Shown piece by piece: positions 1-31,746 of a stretch of DNA of 32,705 nucleotides. The translations under genes were made by a program, and so were the position numbers. How positions within the stretch are numbered: position 1 is the first letter of the stretch; each line of letters starts with the position of its first letter. The notes below the pieces were generated by a model, which was not told where the DNA came from, did no database searches, and saw only the letters and a program-made list of their open reading frames with translations. This DNA is from Candidatus Gastranaerophilales bacterium (lineage in GTDB: Bacteria; Cyanobacteriota; Vampirovibrionia; Gastranaerophilales; Gastranaerophilaceae), in the NCBI GenBank assembly GCA_947628355.1, contig CANQZO010000001.1, positions 1-32,705 on the forward strand. The letters are read 5' to 3'.

Positions 1-141
1 TTTTATGTTGCTCCGGATAAAACCGAAAAAAGATTTTTCCTGACTGCCGCTACTGCTGCCGATGAAGAAAAAATCCTAAGAACTTTATCTAAAGGAAATA
101 CGCTTTATGTTTCTAAATTTAACGGCGGAAAAAGATTTTAA
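1..141 (+). CDS. 3' end of an unidentified gene entering from the left edge (partial)
   Basis: Frame +1 is open from nt 1 to TAA at 139-141 (...AADEEKILRTLSKGNTLYVSKFNGGKRF*). No diagnostic motif. Its stop overlaps the convergent stop of the next gene (TTAA, 138-141). Confidence 0.3.
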   Translation, partial: FYVAPDKTEKRFFLTAATAADEEKILRTLSKGNTLYVSKFNGGKRF

Positions 142-2939: not shown

Positions 2940-2975
2940 TGTTTATCCTTTTCAAAAAAAATTCTAACATACTAT

Positions 2976-3004
2976 TTGTAATTAATAAAGAAACATCGTA
3001 TTAT
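2976..3004 (+). promoter_or_regulatory. Candidate sigma70-type promoter of A3, positioned for a leaderless mRNA
   Basis: TTGTAA (2976-2981), exactly 17 nt, then TATTAT (2999-3004). ATG 3011 follows after 6 nt and there is no SD. Confidence 0.4.
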
Positions 3005-3010
3005 TGTTAT

Positions 3011-5016: not shown

Positions 5017-5027
5017 TAAATTCCTGC

Positions 5028-6038: not shown

Positions 6039-6095
6039 AATTATCCTCTTTTTTAGAATTATATCATAATTTATTTTTATGTTATATTTCATTTT

Positions 6096-7631: not shown

Positions 7632-7649
7632 AAATATAATGGAAGTAAT

Positions 7650-9194: not shown

Positions 9195-9214
9195 ATAAAT
9201 GCTAATATTTGTTT

Positions 9215-10600: not shown

Positions 10601-10653
10601 AAAAAATTTAGTAAATAAAATAAATCCTAATTTTATTGTGATAAAATTTGTAT

Positions 10654-12225: not shown

Positions 12226-12232
12226 AATGCAA

Positions 12233-13261: not shown

Positions 13262-13331
13262 TCTTTACTCCCGTTGTTTACATTATACCAAAATCAAGTA
13301 TTTTATTATATATTTTTATTTAGAGGTATTT

Positions 13332-15263
13332 ATGAGCGAAAATTATGCAATTTGCACGTTTCCTTTTAACGCCGCACAAATAAGCATGCAAGGTGATGTT
13401 TATGTCTGCTGTCCTCCGTGGAGCAGCTCATATTCATTCGGGAATATATACGAGCAGAGTTTTGACGAAATATGGAACGGAGACCGTGCAAGAGAATTTC
13501 GCAGGCAGTTCATTAATAATGATTATAAATATTGTAAACTCGATTTATGCGTTAAAGATTGCGCGCAAAAAATAATTCCGTCAGAAACGGTTGAAAAGCC
13601 TAAAACTTTTATATTCTGCTATGATACCATATGCAACGTGAAATGCATCTTTTGCCGCAGCTGTCACCAAAAGCAGGATTTATCTTATTTTGATGAACAC
13701 ATGGATGAGATAATCTCAAATATGCTTGAAAATGCGCAAAATGTTGTTCTGTCAGGAGTAGGAGAGGCTTTATTCAGTCCGCATTCAAGAAAACTTATAA
13801 AGCGAATATCGGAGATGTTCCCTAATATTAAATTCTCACTTATTTCAAACGGAATTTTATGCGATGAAGAAAATTTAAAAGAACTCGGTATAATTGATAA
13901 ATTGCTTTCAATAACTGTTTCACTCCACGCCGTTAAAAAATCAACTTATGATAAACTTGTTAAAAACGGTGATTTTGACAAGGTTATGGAAAATTTAAAA
14001 TTTCTGTCACAGCTAAAGCAAAAGGGCAAACTCGACAGATTTATTTTAAATTTTGTCGTTACTTCGTGTAATTACCGAGAAATGAGCGATTATATTAAAA
14101 TGGCTGAAAAACTCGGCGCAACTGTTGGTTTTTTGGAACTTTTAAAACTTGAAACTAATGAAGATGTTTATAATGAACTTAACATATTAAATGAAAATCA
14201 TCCTAAGTATAACGATTTTGTAAGGGTTATGAAAAACCCTATATTCCGCTCCTGCAAATGTACAATTAACGATACAATGCTTAATTTAAGACCAATTGAT
14301 AAACCAAATAAAATAGTAAAATATTTTAGCATTTTTATCACTAATATTCTTATAATATTTTTATTATTGTATATATTAAATTTCTTAATTTATTTTAGGA
14401 CATTTAAAAATGATATAAATAACAATAATTTTAATGATTTTCGCTCAATTTTAACTCAATATAAAAATTTTATGTCACAAGATGTTAGTCGTAAAAATAC
14501 TTATGATATTCTTATAAATGATAAAGATAATTGGTATAGAAGAATAGAAAATAAAACTTCCTCAAAACCTTCAATAGTTTTATTTGGCTGTTCTTTTGTA
14601 TGGGGAACAAATTTAGAAGATAATAAAACATTTTCATATCAACTGGGTAAGCTGACAAAGCGTCCTATTTATAACAGAGCCTTAGGGGGTTGGGGTGTTC
14701 AACACATGCTTTATCAACTTCAGCAAGATGAATTTTATAATATCATAACTTCAAAATCCCTCCCCCCTCAATATGTAATTTACACTTTTTTTAGAGGACA
14801 TTATACAAGAATTGTTACCTCAGATGCATTGTATAGTATGCCCTGCTATTTAGTATTTTATAAACACAAAAAAAATGGGGAATTTGTATTAAAAAATAGA
14901 AGTTTTTTTAATTCGAAAATTATAATACATCATTTTATAATTCATGACATTATTATTCCACTAATAGAAAATAAAAAATCATATCAATCCTACATTGATG
15001 AAATTATGTTTGATTATTTAATGGCATCAAAGAAAGAACTTAATAAACACCTTCCAAATACAAAATTTGTAATATTCTTTTATGACGAGCCGTATACACA
15101 AGATATAATTAGAAAATTAGAAGAAAATGGTTTTATTATTATATCTAATAATGATATGGGAATTAATCAGAAGGAATTAAAATATATTTTATCGGATAGA
15201 CATCCCAGTGCATTATATTGGGAGGAAGCGACACCCAAAATTATAAAAAAACTACATTTATAA
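13332..15263 (+). CDS. Fusion protein: class B radical SAM (B1), single TM helix, SGNH/GDSL-like domain (S1)
   Basis: 643 aa. The N-terminus CTFPFNAAQISMQGDVYVCC...FGNIYEQSFDEIWNGDRAREF...CKLDLCVKDC is a twitch/SPASM-like pattern. CNVKCIFC is at nt 13632-13655. The hydrophobic segment YFSIFITNILIIFLLLYILNFLIYF spans about nt 14322-14396. LFGCSFVWG has G-C-S at 14586-14594. ALGGWG and SDRHPSALYW match SGNH blocks II and V. AGAGG SD. Confidence 0.85.
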   Translation: MSENYAICTFPFNAAQISMQGDVYVCCPPWSSSYSFGNIYEQSFDEIWNGDRAREFRRQFINNDYKYCKLDLCVKDCAQKIIPSETVEKPKTFIFCYDTICNVKCIFCRSCHQKQDLSYFDEHMDEIISNMLENAQNVVLSGVGEALFSPHSRKLIKRISEMFPNIKFSLISNGILCDEENLKELGIIDKLLSITVSLHAVKKSTYDKLVKNGDFDKVMENLKFLSQLKQKGKLDRFILNFVVTSCNYREMSDYIKMAEKLGATVGFLELLKLETNEDVYNELNILNENHPKYNDFVRVMKNPIFRSCKCTINDTMLNLRPIDKPNKIVKYFSIFITNILIIFLLLYILNFLIYFRTFKNDINNNNFNDFRSILTQYKNFMSQDVSRKNTYDILINDKDNWYRRIENKTSSKPSIVLFGCSFVWGTNLEDNKTFSYQLGKLTKRPIYNRALGGWGVQHMLYQLQQDEFYNIITSKSLPPQYVIYTFFRGHYTRIVTSDALYSMPCYLVFYKHKKNGEFVLKNRSFFNSKIIIHHFIIHDIIIPLIENKKSYQSYIDEIMFDYLMASKKELNKHLPNTKFVIFFYDEPYTQDIIRKLEENGFIIISNNDMGINQKELKYILSDRHPSALYWEEATPKIIKKLHL

Positions 15264-15308
15264 TTAGTTTATAATATAATATTTTTATAAGAATTTACGA
15301 GGAATATT

Positions 15309-16292
15309 ATGGCATATTTATCATGTGAATTTGTTGAAAACGGAATGTGTTTTATATATGATGCAGCGGTTTTATGTTCATATTCAATGTGCATGAAATT
15401 TGAAGCGATAAAAATAATAGAAGACTATAAAGGGGAATTGTTTGATTGGGATAAAATTAGGCAGATAAAACAGGAATACCGTGACAGATTTGCCAAAAAT
15501 GATATTCCGCCAATCTGCCAAGGCTGCCCGAGTTTAAAAGTTAAAGACTGGGCAGGTGATATGCAGTTAAAGTATATTCTTATCAACCACTGGGAAAACT
15601 GCCCGCTTGATTGCATATATTGCCATACGCATGAACGCAAAAAAGAGCTTAATAAAATGAAACCGTGGAAGATACTTCCTGTTTTAAAAGATGCGCTTAA
15701 AAATAACATGTTAAGCTATGAGGGAAACGTTAATATTACGGGCGGAGAACCTACTGTTTTAAAAGAATTTCCCGATTTAATGAAGTTCTTTCTTGAGAAA
15801 ACAAATATTTTTATTATGATAAATACTGCAGCCGTTGATTATTCCAAGTGGATTAGAAAAGCTATAGAATTAAAACGCTCAGCGCCTACAATATCACTTG
15901 ACGCAGGCACAAGAGAAACTTATAAAAAAATTAAAAATGTTGATTGCTTTAAAAAGGTTATTAAAAATATTAAAAAATATCAAAAAGGTTTAGACCCTAT
16001 TCGTAACAGTTTAATAGGTTTAAAATATATTTTTATTCCCGGATATAACGATACTTTAGAGGAAATTCAAAGCTGGCTTAAAATAGTTGAAGATTTAGGA
16101 ATTACTAATCTTCAATTAGAGCTTGAACATCACTGGTATGAAAAAAATAAATACTGCCCCGATAATGTTAAGGAATATATTGAATTGGTTGTAAAATATG
16201 CCCATCAGCACAAATGCAACCTTTCTTACAGAGAAATTCTTACTACCTGCGGTTACACCGAAGTGATAAGATATATTGATAACGGCAGGTAA
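15309..16292 (+). CDS. Radical SAM enzyme, class A paralogue A8
   Basis: 327 aa. Motifs CPLDCIYC, NITGGEPTVLKEF, SLDAGTRETYKKIKNVDCFKK and LKYIFIPGYNDT. GAGGAA SD. Confidence 0.9.
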   Translation: MAYLSCEFVENGMCFIYDAAVLCSYSMCMKFEAIKIIEDYKGELFDWDKIRQIKQEYRDRFAKNDIPPICQGCPSLKVKDWAGDMQLKYILINHWENCPLDCIYCHTHERKKELNKMKPWKILPVLKDALKNNMLSYEGNVNITGGEPTVLKEFPDLMKFFLEKTNIFIMINTAAVDYSKWIRKAIELKRSAPTISLDAGTRETYKKIKNVDCFKKVIKNIKKYQKGLDPIRNSLIGLKYIFIPGYNDTLEEIQSWLKIVEDLGITNLQLELEHHWYEKNKYCPDNVKEYIELVVKYAHQHKCNLSYREILTTCGYTEVIRYIDNGR

Positions 16293-16293
16293 T

Positions 16294-17319
16294 ATGGCAG
16301 ATAAACACATATATTGCCCCAATCCATATATTTTGGCTGAAATAATGCCGTTTGGTAATGTATATCCTTGCAGCTGCGGCTGGATTAGAGGATATTCTTT
16401 CGGTAATATTTTTGAAAAATCTTATGATGAAATCTGGAACGGGGACAGGGCAAAAGAATTCAGACAAAAACTTTATGATAACGATTTTTCGCTTTGCCCG
16501 GGGTGTCAAAATTTGGAAATTCTGCAAGAAATAAATGACAATGAGCCTAAACTTGTTTCCGCTCCGCCGGAACGTATATTGTTAGGATTAGATGAATATT
16601 GTGATGTTAAATGTATTTTTTGCAGACCGGAAAATTACAAGGTTAATCCTAATCTTATTCCTAAGGATAAAGAGGATAAACTTCTTGAAATACTTACTCC
16701 GTGGCTGAAAAATGCTAAATATGTTAAGACAAATGCGGTAGGCGAGGTTTTTGCAAGTAAAATTTCAAGAGATTTAATTAAAAATATTGCGCTTAACTTC
16801 CCTAACATAAAGTTTGAAATAATTACGAACGGAATACAATGTACAAAAGAAAATATCGAGCAATTAAATCTTACAAACAGAATCTCCATGATGACGGTTT
16901 CTCTGCATGCATTCAAAGAAGAAACATACAATAAAATAGTTAAGGGCGGAAATTATAAAAAAGTAATCGAAAATCTTTATTATCTTTCAGAACTGAAAAA
17001 ATCGGGGCAGATAGAAAGATTTGAGCTCCATTACACTGTTACAAGCATAAACTATAAAGAAATGCCTTTGATGATTAAATTTGCCCGCGAAATCGGCGCT
17101 AATATAAGATTTCTTGGTCTTGACTGTTCAAGGGACTTAGAAGAACTCTATAAAAAAATTAACATTCAAGATAAACATCATCCTAAATACAATGACCTTG
17201 TTAAAGTTGTTCATTCAAAAGAATTTGTGAATGCTAAAGATATTGTTGTTCAAGGCTGGGAATATTTTACAGGCTTGAAAAAAAATTCTTTTTTTACATA
17301 TATAAAAAATAAGTTTTAG
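16294..17319 (+). CDS. Radical SAM enzyme, class B paralogue B2 (N-terminal twitch/SPASM-like domain)
   Basis: Starts at ATG 16294 (MADKHIYCPNPY...), 1 nt after the A8 stop. Motifs CPNPYILAEIMPFGNVYPCSC, FGNIFEKSYDEIWNGDRAKEF, CPGC, CDVKCIFC, NAVGEVF, ITNGIQC and VSLHA. Confidence 0.85.
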   Translation: MADKHIYCPNPYILAEIMPFGNVYPCSCGWIRGYSFGNIFEKSYDEIWNGDRAKEFRQKLYDNDFSLCPGCQNLEILQEINDNEPKLVSAPPERILLGLDEYCDVKCIFCRPENYKVNPNLIPKDKEDKLLEILTPWLKNAKYVKTNAVGEVFASKISRDLIKNIALNFPNIKFEIITNGIQCTKENIEQLNLTNRISMMTVSLHAFKEETYNKIVKGGNYKKVIENLYYLSELKKSGQIERFELHYTVTSINYKEMPLMIKFAREIGANIRFLGLDCSRDLEELYKKINIQDKHHPKYNDLVKVVHSKEFVNAKDIVVQGWEYFTGLKKNSFFTYIKNKF

Positions 17320-17358
17320 TAGTAAAATAATTATATTATAGAAAAGAGGTAAAATATT

Positions 17359-18294
17359 ATGAAAAAGAAAATTTTAAATGTCTTAATTATAGTTGTTTCT
17401 TTAATTGTAATTATACTTTTAATTAATTACGGATTGTATTTATATTTAATTAATACAAATAAAATTGATAAATCGCAAGTTTCTGCTTTTATCAGAAAAA
17501 ATATAACACCTGAAAATATGTTAAACCTTAAATATAGAAATCCAAGCGGATTGAATTATAAAAATAAAAAATCAATAGTAGTTTTTGGCTGCGGGTATGC
17601 TGAAGGTGTTGACTTAAATGATAATCAAACATTTGAAAAAAAATTATCAGATTATTTAAAAGTTCCTGTTTATAATCAAGGAATGGGCGGCGGTTTTATT
17701 CAACATACTATTTTGGCAGTACAAAGCGGTCAGATGAATGATATTATAAAAAAGAGTAATATTGCAGTTTATATTTTGCCGACTCTAAACGATTCCATCA
17801 GATTAAAAGTATTCCCAGACAGAAACTATTTTAGTCCGACATTTTTATACTCAAAAAATTTATATCCTGTTTTTGAAGAAAAAAATGGACAACTGGTTTT
17901 AAGAAATTCTAAATTTCCGTCATTTACAGGAAATACTTTTAACAGACTTTTGACTAAATTATATTTTCAAAAAAAATATTTAAATAAGGGTAATTTACTA
18001 ACTAAATATACAGCTCAGCACTTTGTAAAATTAAATAATGAGTTAAAAGCAATTAACCCTAATATCAAACTTGTTGTAGCAATTTTTTGGGATTTAGAAC
18101 AAAATACCCGTGAATTTAATAAATTAATGCAAGATGAAAATATTTCGATTATACATATTGGTAATATAAGTAAATCAATTAATGTTGATTTAGCAACAGA
18201 TGAATATAGAACGGAACAAAATAAACATCCGAATGAAAAAACTTGGGATGTTTTAACACCTCTGATTGCTAAAGAACTAAAAGCAATAAAATAG
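17359..18294 (+). CDS. Membrane-anchored SGNH/GDSL-like protein S2 (degenerate catalytic motifs)
   Basis: 311 aa with an N-terminal signal-anchor (KKKILNVLIIVVSLIVIILLINYGLYLYLI). VVFGCGYAEG has Gly where the paralogues have Ser. GMGGGF is present. C-terminal NKHPNEKTW lacks the Asp found in the paralogues. AAGAGG SD. Confidence 0.6.
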   Translation: MKKKILNVLIIVVSLIVIILLINYGLYLYLINTNKIDKSQVSAFIRKNITPENMLNLKYRNPSGLNYKNKKSIVVFGCGYAEGVDLNDNQTFEKKLSDYLKVPVYNQGMGGGFIQHTILAVQSGQMNDIIKKSNIAVYILPTLNDSIRLKVFPDRNYFSPTFLYSKNLYPVFEEKNGQLVLRNSKFPSFTGNTFNRLLTKLYFQKKYLNKGNLLTKYTAQHFVKLNNELKAINPNIKLVVAIFWDLEQNTREFNKLMQDENISIIHIGNISKSINVDLATDEYRTEQNKHPNEKTWDVLTPLIAKELKAIK

Positions 18295-18308
18295 TTTTCC
18301 TAAATTTT

Positions 18309-18338
18309 ATCGGCACATTTCTAATGTGCCGATTTTTT
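18309..18338 (+). terminator. Rho-independent terminator closing the + operon (B1-S1, A8, B2, S2)
   Basis: A perfect 11-bp stem, ATCGGCACATT (18309-18319) with AATGTGCCGAT (18323-18333), has a 3-nt loop and is followed by TTTTT. It starts 15 nt after the S2 stop. The hairpin also lies just 3' of the convergent S3 gene, but a minus-strand transcript would have no U-tract. Confidence 0.75.
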
Positions 18339-19260
18339 ATATTTTTGTTAATTCATTTGCTATTGTGGGAATTAAACTATCCCAATATTTTTCATTAGGA
18401 TGAAAATCATTATCAATACACCATTTGCTGCGAGTATTTATATCCATAACTTCAATTTTGGTTAATTTAGGAATATCTATTACATTATAATTTTTTAATA
18501 TGTTATTTTCAAAGTCGAATTCGGATGAAAATTTTACTATTACAAATTTAGAGTTTGGAAATAAAGTTTTTATTTCTTTATCAATTGATAATAAATATAA
18601 ACTGAATAATTGTTCTATGTATTTATTATAACCAATGCTGGTTATATAATTATAAATTAAAAAACTGTAAAAATATGAATTTTCTAATATTAGAGGATTT
18701 TTTTGAAGTAATTTTTTATTTTTAATTTTATAAAATATTTCCATCTCATCTTTAAAAGTAGGTGTTACACGCATAATCATACGTCTTATATGGTCGGGAT
18801 TATAAAAATATAAAATAAATTCGGGTTCTTTTTTTATTGATTGCTTAAATTTACTATATTGGAGAAGGTAATATATTTGATTTAAACCACCTCCTGGATA
18901 TGCAAAATTATATACAGGTCTTTTTAATTTTTTTGATATTTTATATGCAAAAGTTTGATTTTCATTTAATCCTACTCCATACGCCATTGAACATCCAAAT
19001 ACAATTATTGCTTGGGGAGGGGTATTTCTATAGTTTTGACCGTAATATTTGAATGAAAATAAATTTTTGTTATTTAACGGAAAACGAATTGATAAATCTT
19101 TTTCAAAACTCTTTGCTTTATAAAAACTTAAAAATTTGAATGTACTAATTTCACAAGGAAAAATTGTTAATAATTTTTTATATGATACAAATTCAATAAT
19201 AAAAATTACCATAAAAATAAATGTAATATTAACTAAAACTATTGAAAATAAGCGTTTCAC
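18337..19260 (-). CDS. Membrane-anchored SGNH/GDSL-like protein S3
   Basis: 307 aa with an N-terminal anchor (FSIVLVNITFIFMVIFIIEFVSY). Motifs IVFGCSMAYGVG, YPGGGL and DNDFHPNEKYW. GTG start at 19260 with AAGGAG 6 nt upstream, embedded in the last codons of A9. Confidence 0.65.
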   Translation of the reverse strand: MKRLFSIVLVNITFIFMVIFIIEFVSYKKLLTIFPCEISTFKFLSFYKAKSFEKDLSIRFPLNNKNLFSFKYYGQNYRNTPPQAIIVFGCSMAYGVGLNENQTFAYKISKKLKRPVYNFAYPGGGLNQIYYLLQYSKFKQSIKKEPEFILYFYNPDHIRRMIMRVTPTFKDEMEIFYKIKNKKLLQKNPLILENSYFYSFLIYNYITSIGYNKYIEQLFSLYLLSIDKEIKTLFPNSKFVIVKFSSEFDFENNILKNYNVIDIPKLTKIEVMDINTRSKWCIDNDFHPNEKYWDSLIPTIANELTKI

Positions 19261-19261
19261 T

Positions 19262-20257
19262 TTATTCTCCTTGATGTAAGCCTATTCCTACATCTAAATC
19301 CTTCCCTTTTAAAGTTCTGTATTGATTTGCGACACCGTAGAATTGAATATCCAGACCGCGCTGTTTTACCGCAGCAACAATATAATCGTACAAATCATCA
19401 ATATAAGCGGGAATGTTATTTGAATTTCTTGCAAGCCAATCAGCTTCAAAATCAATTATTACTCGTTGAATACCCACCCTTTGAGTTTCATCAAGCCATT
19501 TATTAACGTCTTCTTTTGTGTCATTTACTTTTGGAATAATTATATATTTGGAACGCACCATTTTTTTATTACTGCCCTGAGCTTTTACGTATTTCTTTAA
19601 AGTGTCCATGACCTTATTATAAGCGTCAATTTGCTTTATTTGTTTAAATTTCTGCCTATCCCCGCAATCTACACTTGCAGTTACTGATAATGTATCTGTT
19701 TTAAGTCCATTTAAAACAGATTTAACAGGTTTTATGGCATTAGTATGAACCATTATATTTTTTTCGCCCTTTTTTATAAAGAAGTTTGTTATATCATCAA
19801 ATTCTCTTAAACTTGCAGGCTCGCCTCCGGAGTATGCCAGTTCTCCGGAGTAATCGATTAACCCCATTTTATCAAGTTCTTTTATTATAGGCATTATTTT
19901 ATAGCGTTTTTTTGGTTTTTCAAAATCTGATGCAAGACGGTAGCAGTATGTGCAATTGCAGTTGCATTCTGACCAGTGTGCTATTTGTATCCATTTGAAT
20001 TTTGTATTATCATCCCAGTCTTGTTCTGTCAATGCAAAGCAGCCTGTGCAATGGCTGTCAATTATTCCTTTTTTAAAGTTTTTTCTGATTTCATTAATAT
20101 TGGAAAGAAGTTCATTCCAATTTAATTTTTCACCCCAGTAGTCTTTTTTTATAAATAAAGGCTCGGGGGTATTATTTCCCATAAAACAACAAAGTTTTAT
20201 TGAATTGTATTCAAACCTTAATCCGTTTTGTATGTTTGAACAACTAATATATCTCAA
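19262..20257 (-). CDS. Radical SAM enzyme, class A paralogue A9
   Basis: 331 aa. Motifs CNCNCTYC, AYSGGEPASLREF, SVDCGDRQKFKQIKQIDAYNK and KYIIIPKVNDT. TTG start at 20257 (the (M)RYISC N-terminus matches A1, A6 and A8), with GGAG upstream. Confidence 0.85.
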   Translation of the reverse strand: MRYISCSNIQNGLRFEYNSIKLCCFMGNNTPEPLFIKKDYWGEKLNWNELLSNINEIRKNFKKGIIDSHCTGCFALTEQDWDDNTKFKWIQIAHWSECNCNCTYCYRLASDFEKPKKRYKIMPIIKELDKMGLIDYSGELAYSGGEPASLREFDDITNFFIKKGEKNIMVHTNAIKPVKSVLNGLKTDTLSVTASVDCGDRQKFKQIKQIDAYNKVMDTLKKYVKAQGSNKKMVRSKYIIIPKVNDTKEDVNKWLDETQRVGIQRVIIDFEADWLARNSNNIPAYIDDLYDYIVAAVKQRGLDIQFYGVANQYRTLKGKDLDVGIGLHQGE

Positions 20258-20283
20258 TGTTTTTTCTCCGTATTTACAATATA

Positions 20284-21255
20284 TTATTTTAAAAGTTTTA
20301 ATTTGTCAGTGATTAAATTTGTAATTTCAATCCAACATCTTTCATTAGGGTGCCCGTCATTAGGAATATGATATTGGTCCCACTTTCTTTCTATATCCTT
20401 AATATAATCTTCCACTTCAACAAACATGATATTTTCTTTTTCAAGTTCTTTCCATCTTGGTGAATGTGTAATTAAATCTGTATCGGGTTCATCATGGAAC
20501 GATATTACAATCATTTTTATATTCGGGTTTATTTGCTGCATTTCTTTTTGAATGGTTAAAAGATGCAGTTTTAGATTATCAAACATATAATCTTGAACAT
20601 ATTTATTATTTAATCGTGTAAGTATCTTTGCATACCAAGTTTTTTGAATATATTTATATAAATAAGAACCTTCAAGTACCGGCAGGTATGATTTATGCAA
20701 TATTAATTGTGTATTATTTTTTGTCTTTTTTACATCATACTTTGGCCAAACAAACTGTGTTGCAAATCCGTTAGAATTACTATGAATTCTCCATACATGT
20801 TCTCCGATTAATATATATATAACGTAATCACTTTTTTTGATAATGTCATCTATTTCATGTGAGCGAATACGCATTATCGGAAACTGCGGACTTTGACCGG
20901 AACTTGAAAAATTATATACGGGTCTTTTTAATCGTTTTGATAATTTATAACCAGGTTCTTGCGTAGATGATAATAATGCCCCATATCCATAAGAACATCC
21001 AAACATTATTATAGCATTTTTATTATATTCCAGTCCTGATGGTTTTCTTATTTCATAGTATTTTTTTGATATTTCATAATCCATTAATTTTCTTTTTAAA
21101 GTATATGGATTGTTTTTCAAACTTAACTGAACCGGAACTCTTTCCAGCTTGTTATAAAAATATTTATAAATAACCCAATTTAATAAAAATAATATACCTA
21201 TAGATATAATAATATTCACAAGAATTATTATAAAAATTTTTTTATATTTGTCCAT
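20284..21255 (-). CDS. Membrane-anchored SGNH/GDSL-like protein S4
   Basis: 323 aa with an N-terminal anchor (IFIIILVNIIISIGILFLLNWVIY). Motifs IMFGCSYGYG, SSSGQS and PNDGHPNERCW. Confidence 0.65.
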   Translation of the reverse strand: MDKYKKIFIIILVNIIISIGILFLLNWVIYKYFYNKLERVPVQLSLKNNPYTLKRKLMDYEISKKYYEIRKPSGLEYNKNAIIMFGCSYGYGALLSSTQEPGYKLSKRLKRPVYNFSSSGQSPQFPIMRIRSHEIDDIIKKSDYVIYILIGEHVWRIHSNSNGFATQFVWPKYDVKKTKNNTQLILHKSYLPVLEGSYLYKYIQKTWYAKILTRLNNKYVQDYMFDNLKLHLLTIQKEMQQINPNIKMIVISFHDEPDTDLITHSPRWKELEKENIMFVEVEDYIKDIERKWDQYHIPNDGHPNERCWIEITNLITDKLKLLK

Positions 21256-21272
21256 TAATTATTCTCTTTACT

Positions 21273-21301
21273 TTGATTTAATTACTTTATTATACTAAAA
21301 T
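21273..21301 (+). promoter_or_regulatory. Candidate sigma70-type promoter of B3, positioned for a leaderless mRNA
   Basis: TTGATT (21273-21278), exactly 17 nt, then TAAAAT (21296-21301). The ATG at 21308 follows after 6 nt and there is no SD. Sequence match only, in AT-rich DNA. Confidence 0.4.
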
Positions 21302-21307
21302 TAGTAT

Positions 21308-22327
21308 ATGAAAACAATATGTGCACATCCTTTTAAAAGTATTCAAGTGCAAAATACAGGAGAAATTTATTGCTGCTGCTGTTATTGGACTGATTTTTAT
21401 TCATTCGGCAATATTTTTGAACAGTCTTTTGACGAGATTTGGAACGGGGATAGGGCAAAAGAATTTCGCAGACAGTTTATTGAAAATAATTATAAATTCT
21501 GTAAATTAGATGTTTGTGATCCTGCATATTCTGACATCACACCTGAATTTGAAGCACCGTATCCTAAACGTATTGAATTCAGTTATGACAGGCATTGTAA
21601 TGTACGCTGTATATTCTGCAGAAAAGAGAAAAACAAAGAAGAAGAAAAATTTAACAGACAAAAAGAAAAAAGGATTGAAGATAACTTTGACAGGATTTTT
21701 ACTCCGATTATTGAAAAAGCAGAGATTGTCGAACTTAATTCTGCAGGAGAGCTGTTTGCAAGCAGGCATTCAATTGAAATATTAAAAAAAATTATTAATA
21801 TTAATCCTGATATTAAATTTGGAGTTATATCAAACGGAATATTATTTACTAAGGAAACAACGCAAAAACTGGGACTTGAAGACAGGTTAGATTATGCAAT
21901 AATTTCTATTCACTCTGCGACTGAAAATACATATAATAAACTTGTTGAAAGGGGCAATTTTAAAGCCGTTATTGAAAATGTTAAATATTTATCGGAATTG
22001 AAAAAGCAGGGAAAATTAAAAACATTACAGTTAAATTTTGTTGTTACTTCTTTAAACTATAAAGAAATGAAAGACTTTGTTAAATTTGCTATAGATATGG
22101 ATGGAACCGCATTTTTTATTAACTATCACAGGCAAATTGACTCTGATGAACTTGAAAATAACTTGGATGTGACTTTAGAACACCACCCTAAGCATAATGA
22201 ACTGGTTAAAATCCTTGCTGATCCGATTTTTAACAACGAGCATTGTTTTGTTAATGATTATCTTAAAAATTTAAAGCCCGTTAAACTTTCCTTGTTGCAG
22301 AAAATCAAAAATTTACTTAAAAAATGA
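21308..22327 (+). CDS. Radical SAM enzyme, class B paralogue B3 (N-terminal twitch/SPASM-like domain)
   Basis: 339 aa. Motifs CAHPFKSIQVQNTGEIYCCCC, FGNIFEQSFDEIWNGDRAKEFRRQF, CKLDVC, CNVRCIFC (nt 21596-21619), NSAGELF, ISNGILF and ISIHS. It is the closest paralogue of the rSAM half of the 13332 fusion. Confidence 0.9.
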   Translation: MKTICAHPFKSIQVQNTGEIYCCCCYWTDFYSFGNIFEQSFDEIWNGDRAKEFRRQFIENNYKFCKLDVCDPAYSDITPEFEAPYPKRIEFSYDRHCNVRCIFCRKEKNKEEEKFNRQKEKRIEDNFDRIFTPIIEKAEIVELNSAGELFASRHSIEILKKIININPDIKFGVISNGILFTKETTQKLGLEDRLDYAIISIHSATENTYNKLVERGNFKAVIENVKYLSELKKQGKLKTLQLNFVVTSLNYKEMKDFVKFAIDMDGTAFFINYHRQIDSDELENNLDVTLEHHPKHNELVKILADPIFNNEHCFVNDYLKNLKPVKLSLLQKIKNLLKK

Positions 22328-23305
22328 GCCCTTATCTAAAATTTCTTTTACGTATTCCCAGATATTCGCTTCAATGTTGTATTGCGCACATTTTTCTTTA
22401 TAAAACTTAAATAAATCGTAATAATAATCGGGAATTTTAAATTCTCCCTCAGAAACAAATTCGCTGTCGCATTGGTCTATCATTAATTCAGAGTTTGTAA
22501 TACCGATTTCGTGCATTAGTTCAATATATTTTGTTAGTTCTTCTGTGTTATCATTAACTCCGCGGACTAGTATATATTTTAATCTTAACAGAATCGGCAA
22601 TTTTACGTATTTTTTAAGATTTTCCACTACATCATCAAATTTATCAACGGTTTTAATTTTTTTAAATGTTTCGCGGCACCCCGAATCTATTGAAATATTT
22701 ACGTCCACAAAGGTTTTACCTGCAATCTGTGCAATTTTAGGCAGATATTTTATTCCGTTTGTTGCTATTTCAACCCTTTTCACTCCGTTTTTTATAAAAA
22801 TATCTACAAGCGGTTCAAACTCATCTAAAACAGATACATTTCCGCCCTGAAAATGAACATCAAGCTCTTTTTTATCAATGATATCCTGCCTGTATAATTC
22901 CTCTATTATCGGCAGTAAATCATAATAATCGCTTTTTTTCGATTTTAAAACAATTTTCCTTTGTGATAAATACTGTTCACAGCAATATATGCAAGCACAG
23001 TCGCATTGCTTAAAGTGTTTTACTATTATTAAATTTGCTTTAGGCAGTTTACTAAATCTGCTGATTAATAACGGTTTAGGATTTTCCTGCTCGTGCAAGT
23101 CAAAGCAGTCATTGCATTCGGCAGGGATTTTGCCTTCATCAAGCATTCTTATAAGTGAATTTCTTTTTTTAATAATATCTTTTACCCGCTTTGGTGAGGG
23201 TATATCAATAGATGGCCCTGTTCTTGTTGCACAGCAGTAAAAGACTTTAAGCGCATCAAAATTTAGAGTCTCGTTTAATCTTTTGCAATAGTACCTTTTT
23301 TTCAT
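22313..23305 (-). CDS. Radical SAM enzyme, class A paralogue A10 (QGG[DN] subclade)
   Basis: Motifs CDCACIYC, HFQGGNVSVLDEF, SIDSGCRETFKKIKTVDKFDD and LKYILVRGVNDN. The start is set at ATG 23305 (MKKRYYCKRLNETL) by alignment with the paralogues. The track start at 23386 would overlap A11. Confidence 0.85.
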   Translation of the reverse strand: MKKRYYCKRLNETLNFDALKVFYCCATRTGPSIDIPSPKRVKDIIKKRNSLIRMLDEGKIPAECNDCFDLHEQENPKPLLISRFSKLPKANLIIVKHFKQCDCACIYCCEQYLSQRKIVLKSKKSDYYDLLPIIEELYRQDIIDKKELDVHFQGGNVSVLDEFEPLVDIFIKNGVKRVEIATNGIKYLPKIAQIAGKTFVDVNISIDSGCRETFKKIKTVDKFDDVVENLKKYVKLPILLRLKYILVRGVNDNTEELTKYIELMHEIGITNSELMIDQCDSEFVSEGEFKIPDYYYDLFKFYKEKCAQYNIEANIWEYVKEILDKGSFFK

Positions 23306-23311
23306 AACTTC

Positions 23312-23321
23312 ATTATATAAT
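23312..23321. promoter_or_regulatory. Palindromic ATTATATAAT giving overlapping divergent -10 hexamers for A10 and A11
   Basis: TATAAT on the + strand (23316-23321) lies 6 nt before ATG 23328. TATAAT on the - strand (23312-23317) lies 6 nt before ATG 23305. The whole spacer is only 22 bp and has no SD on either side. Confidence 0.45.
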
Positions 23322-23327
23322 ACTTTT

Positions 23328-24323
23328 ATGAATATTTTAAATCTTTTTAAACCTAAAAAATCATATATGTGCCCGTTATTAAACAATCATTTGCACTTTA
23401 CCTCAAGAGATACATTAGAGCCTTGCTGCAGTGCGAATATAGGGCCTGCTTTAGTCAGTGAATTATCCAAAAAAAATTCCGTGAAAGAATTTATAAAAGC
23501 AAAAAAACACTATATTGAAATATTTAAATCGGGTAAAATCCCTGCTGAGTGCAAGAATTGTGTGCATATTACGGAATACAAAAAGCAAAGTGATTTTAGA
23601 ATTAATAAAATTACTCTTAACCATTATACACAGTGTAACTGCGCTTGTATATACTGCACGCAGGGCAACAGGAATTTTGAAAAAATTAAAGAGGATGAAA
23701 ATAAGCCTGTTTTATACGATGTTTTAAAATTTATTAATGAGCTTTATGATAATAATTTAATTGACCGTGAAAAGTTATATATTGATTTCCAAGGCGGAAA
23801 TATATCATGCTTGAAAAATCACCAAGAGATAATTGATACCTTTTTAAATCGCGGAGCAGGAACTATATATATTCCTACAAATAATATTATTTATATGCCT
23901 GTAATAGAAAAACTTTTAGCTGAAAAAAAAGGAGAACTTTGCACTGCACTTGATTCAGGCTGCAGTGAAACTTATTTAAAAATTAAGCAGGTGGATAAGT
24001 TTGATAAATCGGTAGAGAATTTAAAAAAATATATTGAAAAAGCAGGCGCTGATTCTATTATTATAAAATATATCATTGTGAACGGTTATAACGATAATAT
24101 GGATGAAATCGTTAAATTTATGAATTTAATGATTGAAATAGGTATTAAAATAATCGTTTTAGATATTGATTACAGAGATATAATTGATAAATCTTTCACC
24201 ATACCAAAGCATTATTACGAGATTGCCTCATACGTAAAAAAAACTTGTTTTGAACATAATATGGACTTTGGAATGCCGCCTTATACTAAAAGTGTAATGG
24301 AAAAAGGTTATTCAGAAAAATAA
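23328..24323 (+). CDS. Radical SAM enzyme, class A paralogue A11 (QGG[DN] subclade)
   Basis: 331 aa. Motifs CNCACIYC, DFQGGNISCL (GGN at nt 23793-23801), ALDSGCSETYLKIKQVDKFDK and KYIIVNGYNDN. An alternative start at ATG 23367 cannot be excluded. Confidence 0.85.
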   Translation: MNILNLFKPKKSYMCPLLNNHLHFTSRDTLEPCCSANIGPALVSELSKKNSVKEFIKAKKHYIEIFKSGKIPAECKNCVHITEYKKQSDFRINKITLNHYTQCNCACIYCTQGNRNFEKIKEDENKPVLYDVLKFINELYDNNLIDREKLYIDFQGGNISCLKNHQEIIDTFLNRGAGTIYIPTNNIIYMPVIEKLLAEKKGELCTALDSGCSETYLKIKQVDKFDKSVENLKKYIEKAGADSIIIKYIIVNGYNDNMDEIVKFMNLMIEIGIKIIVLDIDYRDIIDKSFTIPKHYYEIASYVKKTCFEHNMDFGMPPYTKSVMEKGYSEK

Positions 24324-25421
24324 TTATTTATAAGTATCGTGGCTGAATATTGAAATATCATCTTTTGTTTGTTCAAGTTTCATATTTAACTTGGTTCTTG
24401 CAAAATACTTAATTTTATTTTTGATTGAATGCTTTAAGCTGACAGGTTTTAATTCTCTTAAATAATCGGGCAGAAAACAGTGCTGTCTGTCATTAAATAT
24501 CGGGTTTTTAAGCATTTTTACAAAATCATTATAGTTATGGTGATTTTGATAAAACACAGCGTAATTTTCGCGGTTCATTATATATTCGGCATAACCGCCT
24601 ATGCAGGCAGAAAATGCTGCACGGGCATCAAGTTTTTGCGCCAGCTCGACAAACTTTGGCATATCTTTATAATTATCCGCAGTTATAACAAACATAATCT
24701 CAAAATCTTCAAGTTTCCCGCTTTTTTTCAAAGAGCTTATAAATTCAACATTTTTTATTACATCATTAAATTTATCAACCCTAAATATTTTTTTATAGGT
24801 TTCTCTTGTGGCAGCGTGCAAGGATATATGAACTCTAAATATTTTATCAAGCAGGTTATGCTTTTTTAAGTTTTCTTCCGTGCATTTTATACCGTTAGAT
24901 ATGAAATCCACTTTTATATTAGGATTATTTTTAATTATTGCAGAATACATTTTTTGTGTGTGCAGGGAATCAAAAAATTCACCTCGGCAGTTAATAAACA
25001 TATATTTAACATTTTTTGTAATCGGTAAAATGTGTGTTTCAAGTGCGTCTTCCCATTTTTTGCATTCCTCGGGAGGAAGGGCTTGGTGTTCATCTCTGCA
25101 TATTATACACCTTTGAGCGCAGGTATAGTCGTATCCTATATTAATATACTCAGGCAAGGGGGCTATAGTGCTGTCATATTCAAGATTTTCCGTTTTGTTT
25201 CCGTTGCAGTTTTCGTAATTGCAATATGTATATTTTCTCTCCATTACGTCGCGTCTGAAGTTCTGAGCCCGCTCTCCGTTCCAGATTTCTTCAATACTGT
25301 CTTCAAATATATTGCCGATTAAATTAAAATTGGAAAAGCAGGGATTACAGAAAAAACATTTTCCGTCATTATTTAACTCTAAACAATTCCAAGGGTTTTT
25401 ACAATATAAATTTCTATCCAT
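24324..25421 (-). CDS. Radical SAM enzyme, class B paralogue B4 (N-terminal twitch/SPASM-like domain)
   Basis: Starts at ATG 25421 (MDRNLYCKNPW...); the track's TTG at 25439 is also possible. Motifs CKNPWNCLELNNDGKCFFCNPC, GNIFEDSIEEIWNGERAQNF, CNYENC, CAQRCIIC, NCRGEFF, ISNGIKC and ISLHAAT. Confidence 0.85.
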   Translation of the reverse strand: MDRNLYCKNPWNCLELNNDGKCFFCNPCFSNFNLIGNIFEDSIEEIWNGERAQNFRRDVMERKYTYCNYENCNGNKTENLEYDSTIAPLPEYINIGYDYTCAQRCIICRDEHQALPPEECKKWEDALETHILPITKNVKYMFINCRGEFFDSLHTQKMYSAIIKNNPNIKVDFISNGIKCTEENLKKHNLLDKIFRVHISLHAATRETYKKIFRVDKFNDVIKNVEFISSLKKSGKLEDFEIMFVITADNYKDMPKFVELAQKLDARAAFSACIGGYAEYIMNRENYAVFYQNHHNYNDFVKMLKNPIFNDRQHCFLPDYLRELKPVSLKHSIKNKIKYFARTKLNMKLEQTKDDISIFSHDTYK

Positions 25422-25450
25422 AATTTTATGATAGCACAATTTTTAAATAA

Positions 25451-26446
25451 TTAATTTAGAAATTCTTTTAAACTGTTATATTCGCTATATTTCTCGGCAA
25501 TCATAAAATAAACGGGAAGATTTACGTTATATTCTTTTGCAAGCTCAATTACTATGAAAAACAAGAAGTCTATTTCTGATTTTTGACCTATTTTCATATC
25601 ATTTAAAATGGAAGAATAAACATTTGCATCATCACGTTCTTTATATTTTTCAAAATTAGAATAATATTCTTCAAGAAACCCATCTCTTACGTTAATATTT
25701 ATAGCTTTAGCAAGTATTAAAAGTTCACTGCAGAGTTTTTTAAATGTTTCTTCTTTTTCTCCGGTTATTTGATGGGCATTTATATCATAATAAATACAGC
25801 ATGCTTCAAAAGGCGAGCGCGTAATGAGGCGTTCAAACGCAAGCTCTAAAAATTGCTTTTCGGTAATTAAATGAGTATCCATGCCTGTTTGAGTAAAGTC
25901 TTCTTTTATTTGATTAAGAATTTTATTATCAATGTTATTGTGCGGTGCAAATTGAAACTCAACATATTCGCGCTGCTGGAGGTATTCGGCATCATTTCTG
26001 TTATACCAGCGGCATTTGCCTACAAATACGGAATTAAGAACATTAATATTTTTTAATTTTCTGCTTAAAGCATAACCCATACCAAATCCGTTTGCTATAG
26101 AGGTTACAATTGTTTTTTTATGCGAAATACGCTCAATAAACGGCACGGCAGATAAAATATCCGGTGTCCTGATACATAATATTATTACATCAGCTTTGCC
26201 CTTAAACTGTTCTTGAGTTTGTATTTTTACTTTATATCTTTTATCACCTTTTACATTTGAAATTAGTCTAATTCCGCCTTTTTCTTTTGCATTTTTTATA
26301 ACTGACTCATACTTTGAAATTAATGTAACATTTTTTCCCGCTGAATGCAGGAAGCAGGCAAAAGTTGCTCCTGTTGAGCCTGCGCCTATAACTACGTATT
26401 TTAATTTCTTATTAAAAAAATTTATTATACTCATTTTTTTAATCAT
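25451..26446 (-). CDS. ApbA/PanE-family (ketopantoate reductase-like) NAD(P)-dependent oxidoreductase
   Basis: 331 aa. N-terminal Rossmann motif KYVVIGAGSTGATFACFLHSAGKNVTLI, then ADVIILCIRTPD and SIANGFG, as in 2-dehydropantoate 2-reductase family proteins. ATG 26446 overlaps the S5 stop (ATGATTAA); ATG 26434 is an alternative start. Confidence 0.6.
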   Translation of the reverse strand: MIKKMSIINFFNKKLKYVVIGAGSTGATFACFLHSAGKNVTLISKYESVIKNAKEKGGIRLISNVKGDKRYKVKIQTQEQFKGKADVIILCIRTPDILSAVPFIERISHKKTIVTSIANGFGMGYALSRKLKNINVLNSVFVGKCRWYNRNDAEYLQQREYVEFQFAPHNNIDNKILNQIKEDFTQTGMDTHLITEKQFLELAFERLITRSPFEACCIYYDINAHQITGEKEETFKKLCSELLILAKAININVRDGFLEEYYSNFEKYKERDDANVYSSILNDMKIGQKSEIDFLFFIVIELAKEYNVNLPVYFMIAEKYSEYNSLKEFLN

Positions 26447-27350
26447 CTAAATGTTTTATAATATAGGGCAACATTTTATCCCAATAAAGCTCACCGGGAT
26501 GACATTCGTCTTTTGCCAGATATTCTTTTTCAACATCAGGTCTGGCAAATATAAAACCTGATTCTTTTTCCAGATTTATTATTTTGTATTTTGATAAAAA
26601 ATAATTTTGCGGAAAATCTTCAAGCTGAATAATTATAAATTTTGAGTCCGGATATAGTTCTTTTAAACCTTTAGATATGGAGTCTAAATATAAAATTGCG
26701 AAATTGTTGATACGAGTATTTATGAAATTAACAATTTTAAAATGCCCGTATAAATAATTATTTAGGAAATACAGGTTTTTGATATAATCTACAAAATACA
26801 TATATTCAAATATTGAGAATTTTCTTAATTTTAATTTCCCGTGATCATTTTTATAATAAATTTGAAAATGATCATGATTTTGCCAAGATGCATCTTGGTA
26901 CATTCTTCTTTTATGATCATCCATCCAAAAATATAAAATATATTTTGGCGGTATTTTGACATTTTCTTTTATATAACCTGTTTCTAAAATATTATATGTG
27001 TTTGCAAGACCGCCTCCCGGAACTCCAAAGTTATACACAGGCATATTCAGTGCTTTATTTAATTTAGCTGAAATCGTTTGATCATCGTCTAAAGCATAAC
27101 CGTATGCTATAGAACATCCTAAAACAAGAATGGAGTTTTTTTTGTTTTTTGCATCATAAAATTTTGCATTATACATTTTCCAATTATTGTGCGGATAGAA
27201 ATTAAGAAAAGCAAATTTTATATTATTCCCGCTTTTAGTATTAGATTTGACTTTTGTATAAAATGTAACAGTTTCAATAATAAAAATAGCAAAAACAAAT
27301 ATTATAAAATTAACTAGTATAATTAATGAAATCTTTTTTAATTTATTCAT
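26439..27350 (-). CDS. Membrane-anchored SGNH/GDSL-like protein S5
   Basis: 303 aa with an N-terminal anchor (ISLIILVNFIIFVFAIFIIETVTFY). Motifs LVLGCSIAYGYA, VPGGGL and KDECHPGELYW. Confidence 0.65.
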   Translation of the reverse strand: MNKLKKISLIILVNFIIFVFAIFIIETVTFYTKVKSNTKSGNNIKFAFLNFYPHNNWKMYNAKFYDAKNKKNSILVLGCSIAYGYALDDDQTISAKLNKALNMPVYNFGVPGGGLANTYNILETGYIKENVKIPPKYILYFWMDDHKRRMYQDASWQNHDHFQIYYKNDHGKLKLRKFSIFEYMYFVDYIKNLYFLNNYLYGHFKIVNFINTRINNFAILYLDSISKGLKELYPDSKFIIIQLEDFPQNYFLSKYKIINLEKESGFIFARPDVEKEYLAKDECHPGELYWDKMLPYIIKHLDD

Positions 27351-27403
27351 TTTGTCCCCTTTTCATAATTAGTTTATAATATTAAATTTCTTTTTACAAT
27401 AAT

Positions 27404-28483
27404 TTATCCGTTCTCATTTGAGGAAATTTTGTCTTCATATATACCTAAAATGTTTGAATATAATTCAGAGTTTATTCCCTTTTCCTTTGTTTTATTAATG
27501 AAAAACTCTGTCAGATTTTTAATTTTTAATATTAAATCTTGCGAGATTATATTATTTTCAAATACCCTGTTATCCAAATTTAAAATTAATTTATTTATAT
27601 CTATTTGTTTTGATTTTTCAATCCAAAGAGATATTTCTTCAACAGTATCATTAACATTGGGGACTATAACATATTTAGAAATAATTTGTTCCGGAAATTT
27701 TTGAACTTGCATATATTTGATTAAATTTTTCCAAACAAGGTCATAACTTTCAACCCCTTTTACTTTTTTATGAATTTCTTTAGATCCCGCATCTATAGAA
27801 ACTGTTAATGTTACAACACCCTTCTTTATGCCTTCTTCTATTATATTTGAATAATTTATTATATTTGAAAATACATAAACCTTTTTTATTCCGAAATTAA
27901 GGAAAAAGGATAAAGCATCTTCAAATTCTTTGTGCAGTGTTGGCTCTCCTCCGGCAAAATCTATTATTGTTTCCTTTGTTATAATGTTATTTTTTATAAG
28001 TTGTTTTATTATCGGCACAAAGGGATATGTATCACGCCCCTGTGATTTGGTTGTATATTCTCCTGTGGACAGTCGCATGGTATTTTTCCATGAGTCGCAA
28101 TATATACATCTTGAGTTGCAAATTCCGCCTTCCGAAAATTGAACGTATTCCATAAAGTTTTTTAATTTGGTTATATCACTCCTGTAATATTTTTTATCAA
28201 GATTATTACAGCCCTCGCAATTTTTAGGGATTATGCCTTTTGCCAGATTTTTTCTGTTTATTTGTATATGTTTTATTAACTCTTTTACATTAAATTTATT
28301 TTCAAAGTCTGTTAAATCTATATTGTCGTATATACAAGGGAAGACTCTATTTTGAGCAGGGTTGCCCATTGAACAAAAAGCAACTTTTCTTCCGAAAAAT
28401 GTAATATGGGAATTTAGAGCTTCACAAGAAACAAAATTTTCATTATTAATTTTTTGTTTTCTCCAAAACTTTATGTTTAACAT
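27404..28483 (-). CDS. Radical SAM enzyme, class A paralogue A12
   Basis: 359 aa. Motifs CNSRCIYC, DFAGGEPTLHKEF, SIDAGSKEIHKKVKGVESYD and KYVIVPNVNDT (sister of A3). AGGGAG SD 6 nt before the ATG. Confidence 0.9.
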   Translation of the reverse strand: MLNIKFWRKQKINNENFVSCEALNSHITFFGRKVAFCSMGNPAQNRVFPCIYDNIDLTDFENKFNVKELIKHIQINRKNLAKGIIPKNCEGCNNLDKKYYRSDITKLKNFMEYVQFSEGGICNSRCIYCDSWKNTMRLSTGEYTTKSQGRDTYPFVPIIKQLIKNNIITKETIIDFAGGEPTLHKEFEDALSFFLNFGIKKVYVFSNIINYSNIIEEGIKKGVVTLTVSIDAGSKEIHKKVKGVESYDLVWKNLIKYMQVQKFPEQIISKYVIVPNVNDTVEEISLWIEKSKQIDINKLILNLDNRVFENNIISQDLILKIKNLTEFFINKTKEKGINSELYSNILGIYEDKISSNENG

Positions 28484-28500
28484 TTCTTCTCCCTTATATT

Positions 28501-29487: not shown

Positions 29488-29571
29488 AATAATATCTTTT
29501 AGGATAACATATTGAATGGTAATATTCTACTTTTTATTGTAATATATAAATGTAGAAATTTGGAAGTTAAA

Positions 29572-31673: not shown

Positions 31674-31746
31674 TTATTTGCTCCGTTATAATTTTAATAT
31701 TTACTTGTAACTTTAATATTTTACTATGGTTTTATATGTTTTTAAA

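Follow-up and report, generated by a model that had tools for sequence, protein, structure and literature searches.

Radical SAM proteins with a twitch/SPASM-type domain ahead of the core in a gene island of Candidatus Gastranaerophilales

Introduction

Reviews place the SPASM and twitch domains of radical S-adenosylmethionine (SAM) enzymes as C-terminal extensions of the barrel (PMC9012708). A locus in a Candidatus Gastranaerophilales bacterium raises the question of whether this order can be reversed and, if so, what the displaced domain would do. The DNA concerned is a stretch of 32,705 nucleotides (here referred to as the window, i.e., the whole stretch that was analyzed) from assembly GCA_947628355.1, contig CANQZO010000001.1, positions 1 to 32,705. 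In 886..32705, 20 of the 29 genes encode radical SAM paralogs (16 of class A and four of class B), and the window has a GC content of 28.4%. One of the class B genes, B3 (21308..22327), was the starting point: a sequence-only reading had proposed that its product and the three other class B proteins carry a twitch/SPASM-type auxiliary domain that has been relocated to the N-terminus. For the SPASM/twitch megacluster, the RadicalSAM.org paper reports some members with conserved Cys N-terminal to the barrel, and notes that structures of them are lacking (PMC9477430).

In this study, the class B proteins were assessed by hidden Markov model (HMM) searches, structure models, family-wide alignments and gene context. 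They are probably SPASM/twitch-subgroup radical SAM enzymes that have a BtrN-like twitch domain at the extreme N-terminus, which would bear a cluster and lie near the active site.

Results

Layout of the class B genes and their N-terminal cysteines

Identity to B3 across the class B proteins is 39-44% in alignment. The parts of the four proteins are listed here with their positions in the window.

21308..22327, + strand: B3, open reading frame (ORF) of 339 aa with N-terminal twitch, radical SAM core and C-terminal helical extension
21308..21532, + strand: B3 twitch module, residues 1-75 (Pfam PF13186, E 5e-13)
21320-21322, 21374-21376, 21500-21502 and 21515-21517, + strand: B3 candidate ligands C5, C23, C65 and C70
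21533..21568, + strand: B3 linker from the twitch module to core beta-1, residues 76-87
21569..22147, + strand: B3 radical SAM partial-barrel core, residues ~88-280 (PF04055 at 95-261)
21596..21619, + strand: B3 CxxxCxxC (C97, C101, C104)
22148..22324, + strand: B3 C-terminal helical extension, residues 281-339 (from alignments)
13332..15263, + strand: B1, 643 aa; twitch, radical SAM core (Pfam Radical_SAM, E 4.5e-12), one transmembrane helix and SGNH-like domain
13353-13538, + strand: B1 twitch, residues 8-69 (Pfam SPASM, E 3e-15)
16276..17319, + strand: B2, 347 aa; twitch, then radical SAM core
16315-16509, + strand: B2 twitch, residues 14-78 (Pfam SPASM, E 8.8e-14), with its fourth Cys within C-x2-C
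24324..25439, - strand: B4, 371 aa; twitch, then radical SAM core (Radical_SAM, E 7.7e-7)
25203-25403, - strand: B4 twitch, residues 13-79 (Pfam SPASM, E 3.1e-10)

The interval 21308..21619 corresponds to B3 residues 1-104 and its end falls exactly on the final Cys of CxxxCxxC. Each of the four class B proteins opens with C-x12-G-x4-C, and the strings quoted for them in the sequence-only reading are present as written: CAHPFKSIQVQNTGEIYCC in B3, CTFPFNAAQISMQGDVYVCC in B1, CPNPYILAEIMPFGNVYPC in B2 and CKNPWNCLELNNDGKCFFC in B4. The conserved Gly of the CX9-15GX4C motif is G18 in B3. A block of the form GNI(F/Y)E.S..EIWNG.RA..F follows in all four proteins; the FGNI that had been ascribed to each of them holds for B3, B1 and B2, and B4 has IGNI instead. 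The next Cys pair is C-x4-C in B3, B1 and B4 and C-x2-C in B2. In B3, CxxxCxxC then begins 27 residues past C70, in line with the spacing that had been described.

Conservation was followed in 109 single-domain family representatives, all of which have the radical SAM triad C97/C101/C104, invariant also in both class B alignments. C5 is kept in 105 of these representatives, C23 in 108, C65 in 107 and C70 in 104. The conserved N-terminal cysteines are five rather than the four of the earlier reading, since C24 is kept in 96 of the 109. This residue (21377..21379) forms a CC doublet with the post-hairpin ligand C23, and might act as a substitute ligand or as a catalytic thiol. Beyond C104, the only Cys of B3 is C313, which lies in the C-terminal extension and is not conserved across the representatives, so that the claim of no second Cys module at the C-terminus was borne out. 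The extension, which is without a Cys-rich module, has a conserved H293/N297 pair in an 'HP.(Y/H)N' motif.

In view of the AT-richness of the window and of the TTG start codons of the B2 and B4 ORFs, one might suspect that the Cys-rich N-terminus is fortuitous, or that the gene was called or assembled wrongly. The chance of this is negligible. The Pfam matches reach E-values of 1e-10 to 1e-15, no possible start codon comes between the preceding stop and the B3 start at 21308, and a 52-nt spacer separates B3 from the upstream gene, which is divergently transcribed. The layout moreover recurs in four paralogs and in >100 independent 50%-identity representatives from many assemblies, and an artefact of chance or gene calling was rejected on these grounds.

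The N-terminal module has a twitch/SPASM fold

In Pfam, PF13186 (SPASM) matches residues 5-66 of B3, 8-69 of B1, 14-78 of B2 and 13-79 of B4 (E 5e-13, 3e-15, 9e-14 and 3e-10, respectively), scoring 40.6-56.7 bits (gathering cut-off 21.5 bits). The match precedes PF04055 (Radical_SAM, ~95-261) in each protein, as the sequence-only reading had anticipated from the Cys signature. When B3 alone was compared with the PDB, the sole match was BtrN, with B3 10-73 on BtrN 174-235 (E 0.084). A profile built from 39 N-terminal modules of family representatives matched BtrN residues 166-238 with E 2.2e-10, followed by anSME (0.006) and SuiB (0.016), and it aligned B3 C5/G18/C23 with BtrN C169/G182/C187.

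The predicted structure agrees with these profile matches. In canonical twitch domains (BtrN, SkfB), a first Cys precedes a hairpin and a second follows it; then comes a helix, behind which there are two more Cys (PMC6231123). An AlphaFold2 model of B3 from a 35-sequence alignment (predicted local distance difference test, pLDDT, 91.1; predicted template modelling score, pTM, 0.87) has a beta-hairpin at 11-15/19-21, two helices (41-46 and 48-58), a loop behind them that holds C65 and C70, and core beta-1 at 88-92. The order Cys5, beta-hairpin, Cys23, helix, Cys65-x4-Cys70 equals the canonical twitch topology. The linker is without secondary structure in the model (pLDDT 71-81) and is variable in alignments. 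A model of the isolated residues 1-85 (pLDDT 85.7) was compared with the PDB by Foldseek, and BtrN came first (query TM-score, TMq, 0.60; root-mean-square deviation, rmsd, 2.9 A; 70 columns), with further matches to anSMEcpe, PqqE and TigE; ten of the 12 matches were SPASM/twitch enzymes, and no rubredoxin or zinc-ribbon folds were found among them. Residues ~1-75 are therefore homologous to the twitch/SPASM fold, and the structural counterpart that had been predicted for them is the BtrN twitch and the anSME SPASM domain, by fold as well as by profile.

Probable cluster content of the module

The second half of the seven-Cys SPASM motif (CX2CX5CX3C...C) was not found in the alignments of the 109 representatives, where only C65 and C70 come after the helix. 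Because class B has only the first half of this motif, its module appears to be twitch-like, with one cluster rather than two. As in BtrN, the four residues C5, C23, C65 and C70 would bind one auxiliary [4Fe-4S] cluster with all-Cys ligation.

Several points weigh against the view of a BtrN-like, cluster-bearing module. AlphaFold models carry no cofactors, and cluster binding is transferred from BtrN; the fifth conserved Cys, C24, is not accounted for by a four-Cys twitch model; the last Cys pair is slightly offset in the HMMER alignment with BtrN, being mostly C-x4-C in class B and C-x2-C in BtrN; and the Foldseek E-value of the 85-residue module is modest (0.04). The twitch fold might be without a catalytic [4Fe-4S] cluster and hold a [2Fe-2S] cluster (as in SkfB and PqqE Aux I) or else a mononuclear Fe/Zn Cys4 site, with a structural or docking role, e.g., for the S family described below. 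GDGT-MAS, which has an N-terminal rubredoxin-like Fe site and a surface N-terminal auxiliary-cluster domain (PMC9433317), lends some support to this alternative, as do the C-x4-C spacing and the extra C24 by which class B departs from BtrN. It is nevertheless rather doubtful: the closest solved homolog, BtrN (E 2.2e-10, identical C-x12-G-x4-C), binds an all-Cys [4Fe-4S] cluster, the four ligand positions are each >95% conserved in the 109 representatives, and neither rubredoxin nor zinc ribbon is among the fold matches of the module.

Domain order is swapped relative to canonical families

Canonical SPASM-family HMMs match class B in two pieces and in reversed order. The N-terminal core part of such models (e.g., TIGR04311 positions 1-186) aligns with residues ~85-274, whereas their C-terminal SPASM parts (DynA 255-317, anSME 259-343, AlbA 345-381, TIGR04347 298-354 and spiro-SPASM 448-500) align with the N-terminal ~10-80 residues. 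When B3 residues 1-78 were placed behind the core in silico, the permuted protein became collinear with spiro-SPASM (residues 9-271 on profile 231-503), ScmE (8-327 on 2-315), MftC (6-309 on 11-285) and AlbA (4-331 on 108-402). Total HMM scores hardly shifted upon permutation, as expected for HMMER, and collinearity alone changed. The order of the auxiliary domain in class B is thus truly swapped relative to canonical families, which upholds the proposed relocation. Neither profile searches of the PDB nor Foldseek found a solved structure with the twitch-before-core order.

For the core itself, PF04055 matches with E-values between 7e-12 and 8e-7 and with scores that reach or exceed the gathering score, and the best HMM matches are SPASM-family cores (TIGR04311, TIGR04317, MftC, ScmE, AhbD). 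Foldseek with the whole B3 model retrieved viperin 6q2p (E 4.5e-9), NifB, DesII, BlsE, MoaA and SkfB, and also GDGT-MAS; these alignments cover the core only, because the method depends on sequence order.

The swapped order could have arisen by independent domain shuffling instead of circular permutation, i.e., by fusion of a free-standing SPASM/twitch-like domain upstream of the core, in which case its three-dimensional position may differ. Proteins that consist of SPASM only do exist, such as those of the GeoRSP system (TIGR04304, a weak match to B2 residues 21-81), and intermediate forms between the canonical and the swapped order have not been demonstrated. This origin is rather unlikely, given that the best HMM matches of the core are to SPASM-family cores and not to unrelated radical SAM groups, that the whole-protein B3 model has a pTM of 0.87, and that tandem B-B genes and fusion proteins (see below) provide what a permutation by duplication would start from.

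The class B family is large and its architecture is already catalogued

When 1.84 billion cluster representatives (50%-identity clusters) were searched exhaustively with a profile, 1,554 class B representatives came up at E<=1e-30. About 130 of the best 150 are collinear from profile position ~3-6 and hence include the N-terminal module, the remainder being truncated or starting later in the profile. In the collinear representatives, C-x9-15-G-x4-C lies ~95-100 residues ahead of CxxxCxxC. Genomic matches come mostly from Candidatus Gastranaerophilales (gut Melainabacteria), whose genomes each carry many paralogs; further hosts are Alphaproteobacteria metagenome-assembled genomes (MAGs), Planctomycetia/Brocadia, Methanoregula, Cellvibrionaceae, BRC1/Sumerlaeia, Desulfatiglandales, Halobacteriovorax, Bacilli and Clostridia. 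The arrangement is a fixed feature of this large family, which spans phyla.

This layout is not new: it is catalogued at the database level and unstudied. NCBIfam holds NF033640 'N_Twi_rSAM' (twitch domain-containing radical SAM protein), which has a twitch at profile ~2-62 with the core after it. Class B is collinear with this model (B3 2-62 on 2-62; B2 13-290 on 4-315; B4 12-327 on 4-349), and the collinearity is lost in the permuted B3. The four class B proteins score 58.2, 53.0, 48.1 and 27.5 bits, with a cut-off of 170. Distant class B relatives from six phyla are likewise collinear with NF033640, at 44-96 bits, and all those tested stay under the same cut-off. By these scores, class B is a separate, unmodelled family that shares the NF033640 architecture rather than a member of NF033640. 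Near homologs are already auto-named 'SPASM domain-containing protein' with PF13186 and then PF04055 as their Pfam order. A literature search found no paper on N-terminal twitch/SPASM domains, NF033640 or the class B family, and nothing relevant for Gastranaerophilales radical SAM proteins or for SPASM together with glycosyltransferase and polysaccharide.

Tandem B-B gene pairs are seen in several loci (L024-L030, L061), and there are apparent B-B fusion proteins of 528-1188 aa with two B-type matches each (P0069, P0121, P0122, P0124, P0126). They may be intermediates of a circular permutation by duplication, or else gene-calling merges.

The surrounding island

The class B genes lie among genes for class A radical SAM proteins, S proteins and polytopic membrane proteins (M), and this A/B/S/M gene order is shared, in synteny, by many Candidatus Gastranaerophilales MAGs (loci L002-L021). 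The features of the window outside class B are as follows.

17359..18294, + strand: S protein with N-terminal membrane anchor and SGNH/GDSL-like domain
18337..19260, - strand: S protein copy
20284..21255, - strand: S protein copy
26439..27350, - strand: S protein copy
6096..7631, + strand: polytopic membrane protein
7650..9194, + strand: polytopic membrane protein, paralogous
10648..12225, + strand: polytopic membrane protein, paralogous (the three being ~511-525 aa)
886..1962, + strand: class A gene, example
19262..20257, - strand: class A gene, example
27404..28483, - strand: class A gene, example
9209..10600, + strand: class A paralog with a ~130-aa C-terminal extension, unlike the other class A copies
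31747..32705, - strand: last class A gene
25451..26446, - strand: ketopantoate reductase/ApbA-family NAD(P) oxidoreductase between B4 and an S gene
138..806, - strand: lipoate-protein ligase A/B catalytic-domain protein (PF21948, E 1.6e-34), marking the island's left border

The S proteins share conserved 'FGCS' and 'D..HP(N)E' blocks in alignment. None of the four has a Pfam match; in NCBIfam, the copies at 18337..19260, 20284..21255 and 26439..27350 have weak collinear matches to NF047474 (LA_2486 SGNH/GDSL esterase family), which are absent for the S protein at 17359..18294 and for the C-terminal domain of B1. The S genes are syntenic with B genes in Gastranaerophilales loci, and S homologs were seen within Gastranaerophilales islands only. 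The C-terminal half of B1 aligns with the stand-alone S proteins, and a B1-type fusion also occurs in two other genomes (loci L002, 2-1624, and L016, 3715-5673). Judged from its predicted domains, B1 implies intracellular radical SAM chemistry tethered to an extracellular hydrolase- or acyltransferase-like domain. An S-family HMM detected no S-like domain in long family representatives (640-860 aa), and the B-S fusion is limited to Gastranaerophilales B1 orthologs. The three polytopic membrane proteins share a soluble C-terminal tail of the form 'GG.(F/L)T..E...(L/M).FS..N', have no match in Pfam or NCBIfam, and have homologs in related islands (L012, L015, L016, L020, L023).

Class A may differ from class B less sharply than the sequence-only reading had stated. 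In 15 of 15 aligned class A proteins, C6, C23, C70 and C73 are invariant ahead of CxxxCxxC (C98/C102/C105), with a Cys spacing that closely resembles those of class B and the BtrN twitch. Aligned over their full length with hhalign, class A and class B run collinear from the first Cys onwards (probability 98.3%). On its own, the N-terminal module of class A has no match in the PDB, and against the class B module it aligns over the hairpin only (E 8e-4 to 2e-3). Some class A proteins match NF033640 weakly and collinearly (up to 48.5 bits), and some match the N-terminal region of the model for the tetraether synthase Tes. Class A homologs were found in Gastranaerophilales only, with PF04055 alone. 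Taken together, the alignments are no more than suggestive of homology between the class A N-terminal module and twitch.

The frame of the last class A gene is open to the window edge, with the N-terminal Cys region included. The listed 262-aa ORF at 31747..32705 is thus window-truncated or has an internal start, and the island extends past the window, because the frame runs to the edge. The ketopantoate reductase/ApbA-family protein is the only conventional soluble redox enzyme within the island.

Discussion

If the class B proteins are indeed BtrN-like in their N-terminal part, a mechanism can be outlined by analogy. The twitch module would dock at the side of the partial barrel and so bring its cluster within electron-transfer distance of the active site. 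After H-abstraction by the 5'-deoxyadenosyl radical, the auxiliary cluster would accept or relay an electron from the substrate radical, a role that has been proposed for BtrN and anSME (PMC6231123; PMC9012708). A twitch at the front would leave the C-terminus free for the helical extension or, in B1, for a membrane anchor and an SGNH-like domain outside the cytoplasm.

The weakest step concerns the substrate, which is probably a small sugar, a nucleotide-sugar, or an envelope glycan or lipid intermediate, and not a peptide. The nearest structural matches of the core (viperin, DesII, BlsE, MoaA) act on nucleotides or sugars, and relatives in Planctomycetia and Cellvibrionaceae are flanked by GT2, GT4 and GT61 glycosyltransferases, FkbM methyltransferases and a sulfotransferase. 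The fusion and the synteny of B with SGNH-like proteins point the same way. A heterogeneous gene context elsewhere, with mnmG/bamB, amidase/beta-lactamase and nrdD neighbours, speaks against this part of the interpretation, and glycan tailoring is weakly indicated because the context outside Gastranaerophilales, Planctomycetia and Cellvibrionaceae is so varied. In two loci from Alphaproteobacteria MAGs (L041, L057), a single class B ortholog has a conserved place directly downstream of mnmG/gidA, beside a bamB-like gene, a housekeeping context unlike the islands and glycan clusters seen elsewhere.

Maturation of peptides that are synthesized ribosomally and modified post-translationally (RiPPs), with the N-terminal region in peptide recognition, could be considered for class B, as many of the top-scoring HMMs are peptide maturases (MftC, ScmE, AlbA, StsB, DynA). 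It is very improbable. A Pfam scan found neither a RiPP recognition element (RRE) nor another peptide-binding domain in class B, the N-terminus being entirely taken up by the twitch module, and the proteins closest to the core in structure act on small molecules. Furthermore, the window is 97% coding with a largest intergenic gap of 79 nt, which leaves no space for precursor-peptide genes, and the neighbours of class B are SGNH-like and polytopic membrane proteins.

On a speculative view, to which we assign only a low likelihood, the N-terminal twitch would be an adaptation that frees the C-terminus, and the island would be an undescribed system of gut Melainabacteria for diversifying surface glycans or lipids, with one radical modification per paralog. 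Its parts would be the 20 radical SAM paralogs with N-terminal Cys modules, the SGNH-like proteins and the three polytopic membrane proteins, and cytoplasmic radical SAM chemistry would be linked across the membrane to an SGNH acyl-transferase or esterase outside the cytoplasm, as in the conserved B1 fusion.

Class B is a new, large and unmodelled family within a catalogued architecture, and in that sense no categorical surprise. It does reverse the SPASM/twitch order given in reviews, every solved example being core and then twitch. With >1,500 50%-identity clusters from many phyla, it offers a test of whether the position of the auxiliary cluster survives permutation, and it also bears on how permutations arise (tandem B-B fusions) and which chemistry results. 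Annotation pipelines that expect SPASM after the barrel may mis-describe such proteins. The radical-SAM-dominated island, conserved in gut Gastranaerophilales, may be the more rewarding target.

Comparison with known systems

Among solved structures, the closest homolog of the class B module is the prototype twitch enzyme BtrN (butirosin 2-deoxy-scyllo-inosamine dehydrogenase; PDB 4M7S/4M7T), which acts on a small, sugar-like substrate. The two share an identical C-x12-G-x4-C spacing and four Cys, two of them after the helix; in BtrN, all four ligate the auxiliary [4Fe-4S] cluster (PMC6231123). They differ in that the BtrN twitch follows the core (166-238 of ~250) whereas that of class B is N-terminal, in the last Cys pair (C-x2-C in BtrN, mostly C-x4-C in class B), and in the ~60-residue C-terminal extension of class B, which BtrN lacks. 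The class B core is not specifically BtrN-like, as viperin, NifB and DesII rank above BtrN, and only the module is so.

With canonical SPASM/twitch enzymes (anSME, PqqE, MftC, AlbA, SuiB, SkfB; SFLD subgroup 17), class B shares both homologous modules, but the auxiliary domain of those enzymes comes after the barrel and class B has the reverse order. NF033640 has the same collinear architecture as class B, which falls far below its cut-off. Precedents for auxiliary metal sites N-terminal to the barrel are found in GDGT-MAS/Tes (PDB 7TOM), LipA, MiaB/RimO and TYW1. In GDGT-MAS, these comprise the N-terminal rubredoxin-like Fe site plus a surface auxiliary-cluster domain with a 3Cys+His cluster (PMC9433317). 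The N-terminal domains of these precedents are not twitch/SPASM folds, whereas the class B module is of the twitch type.

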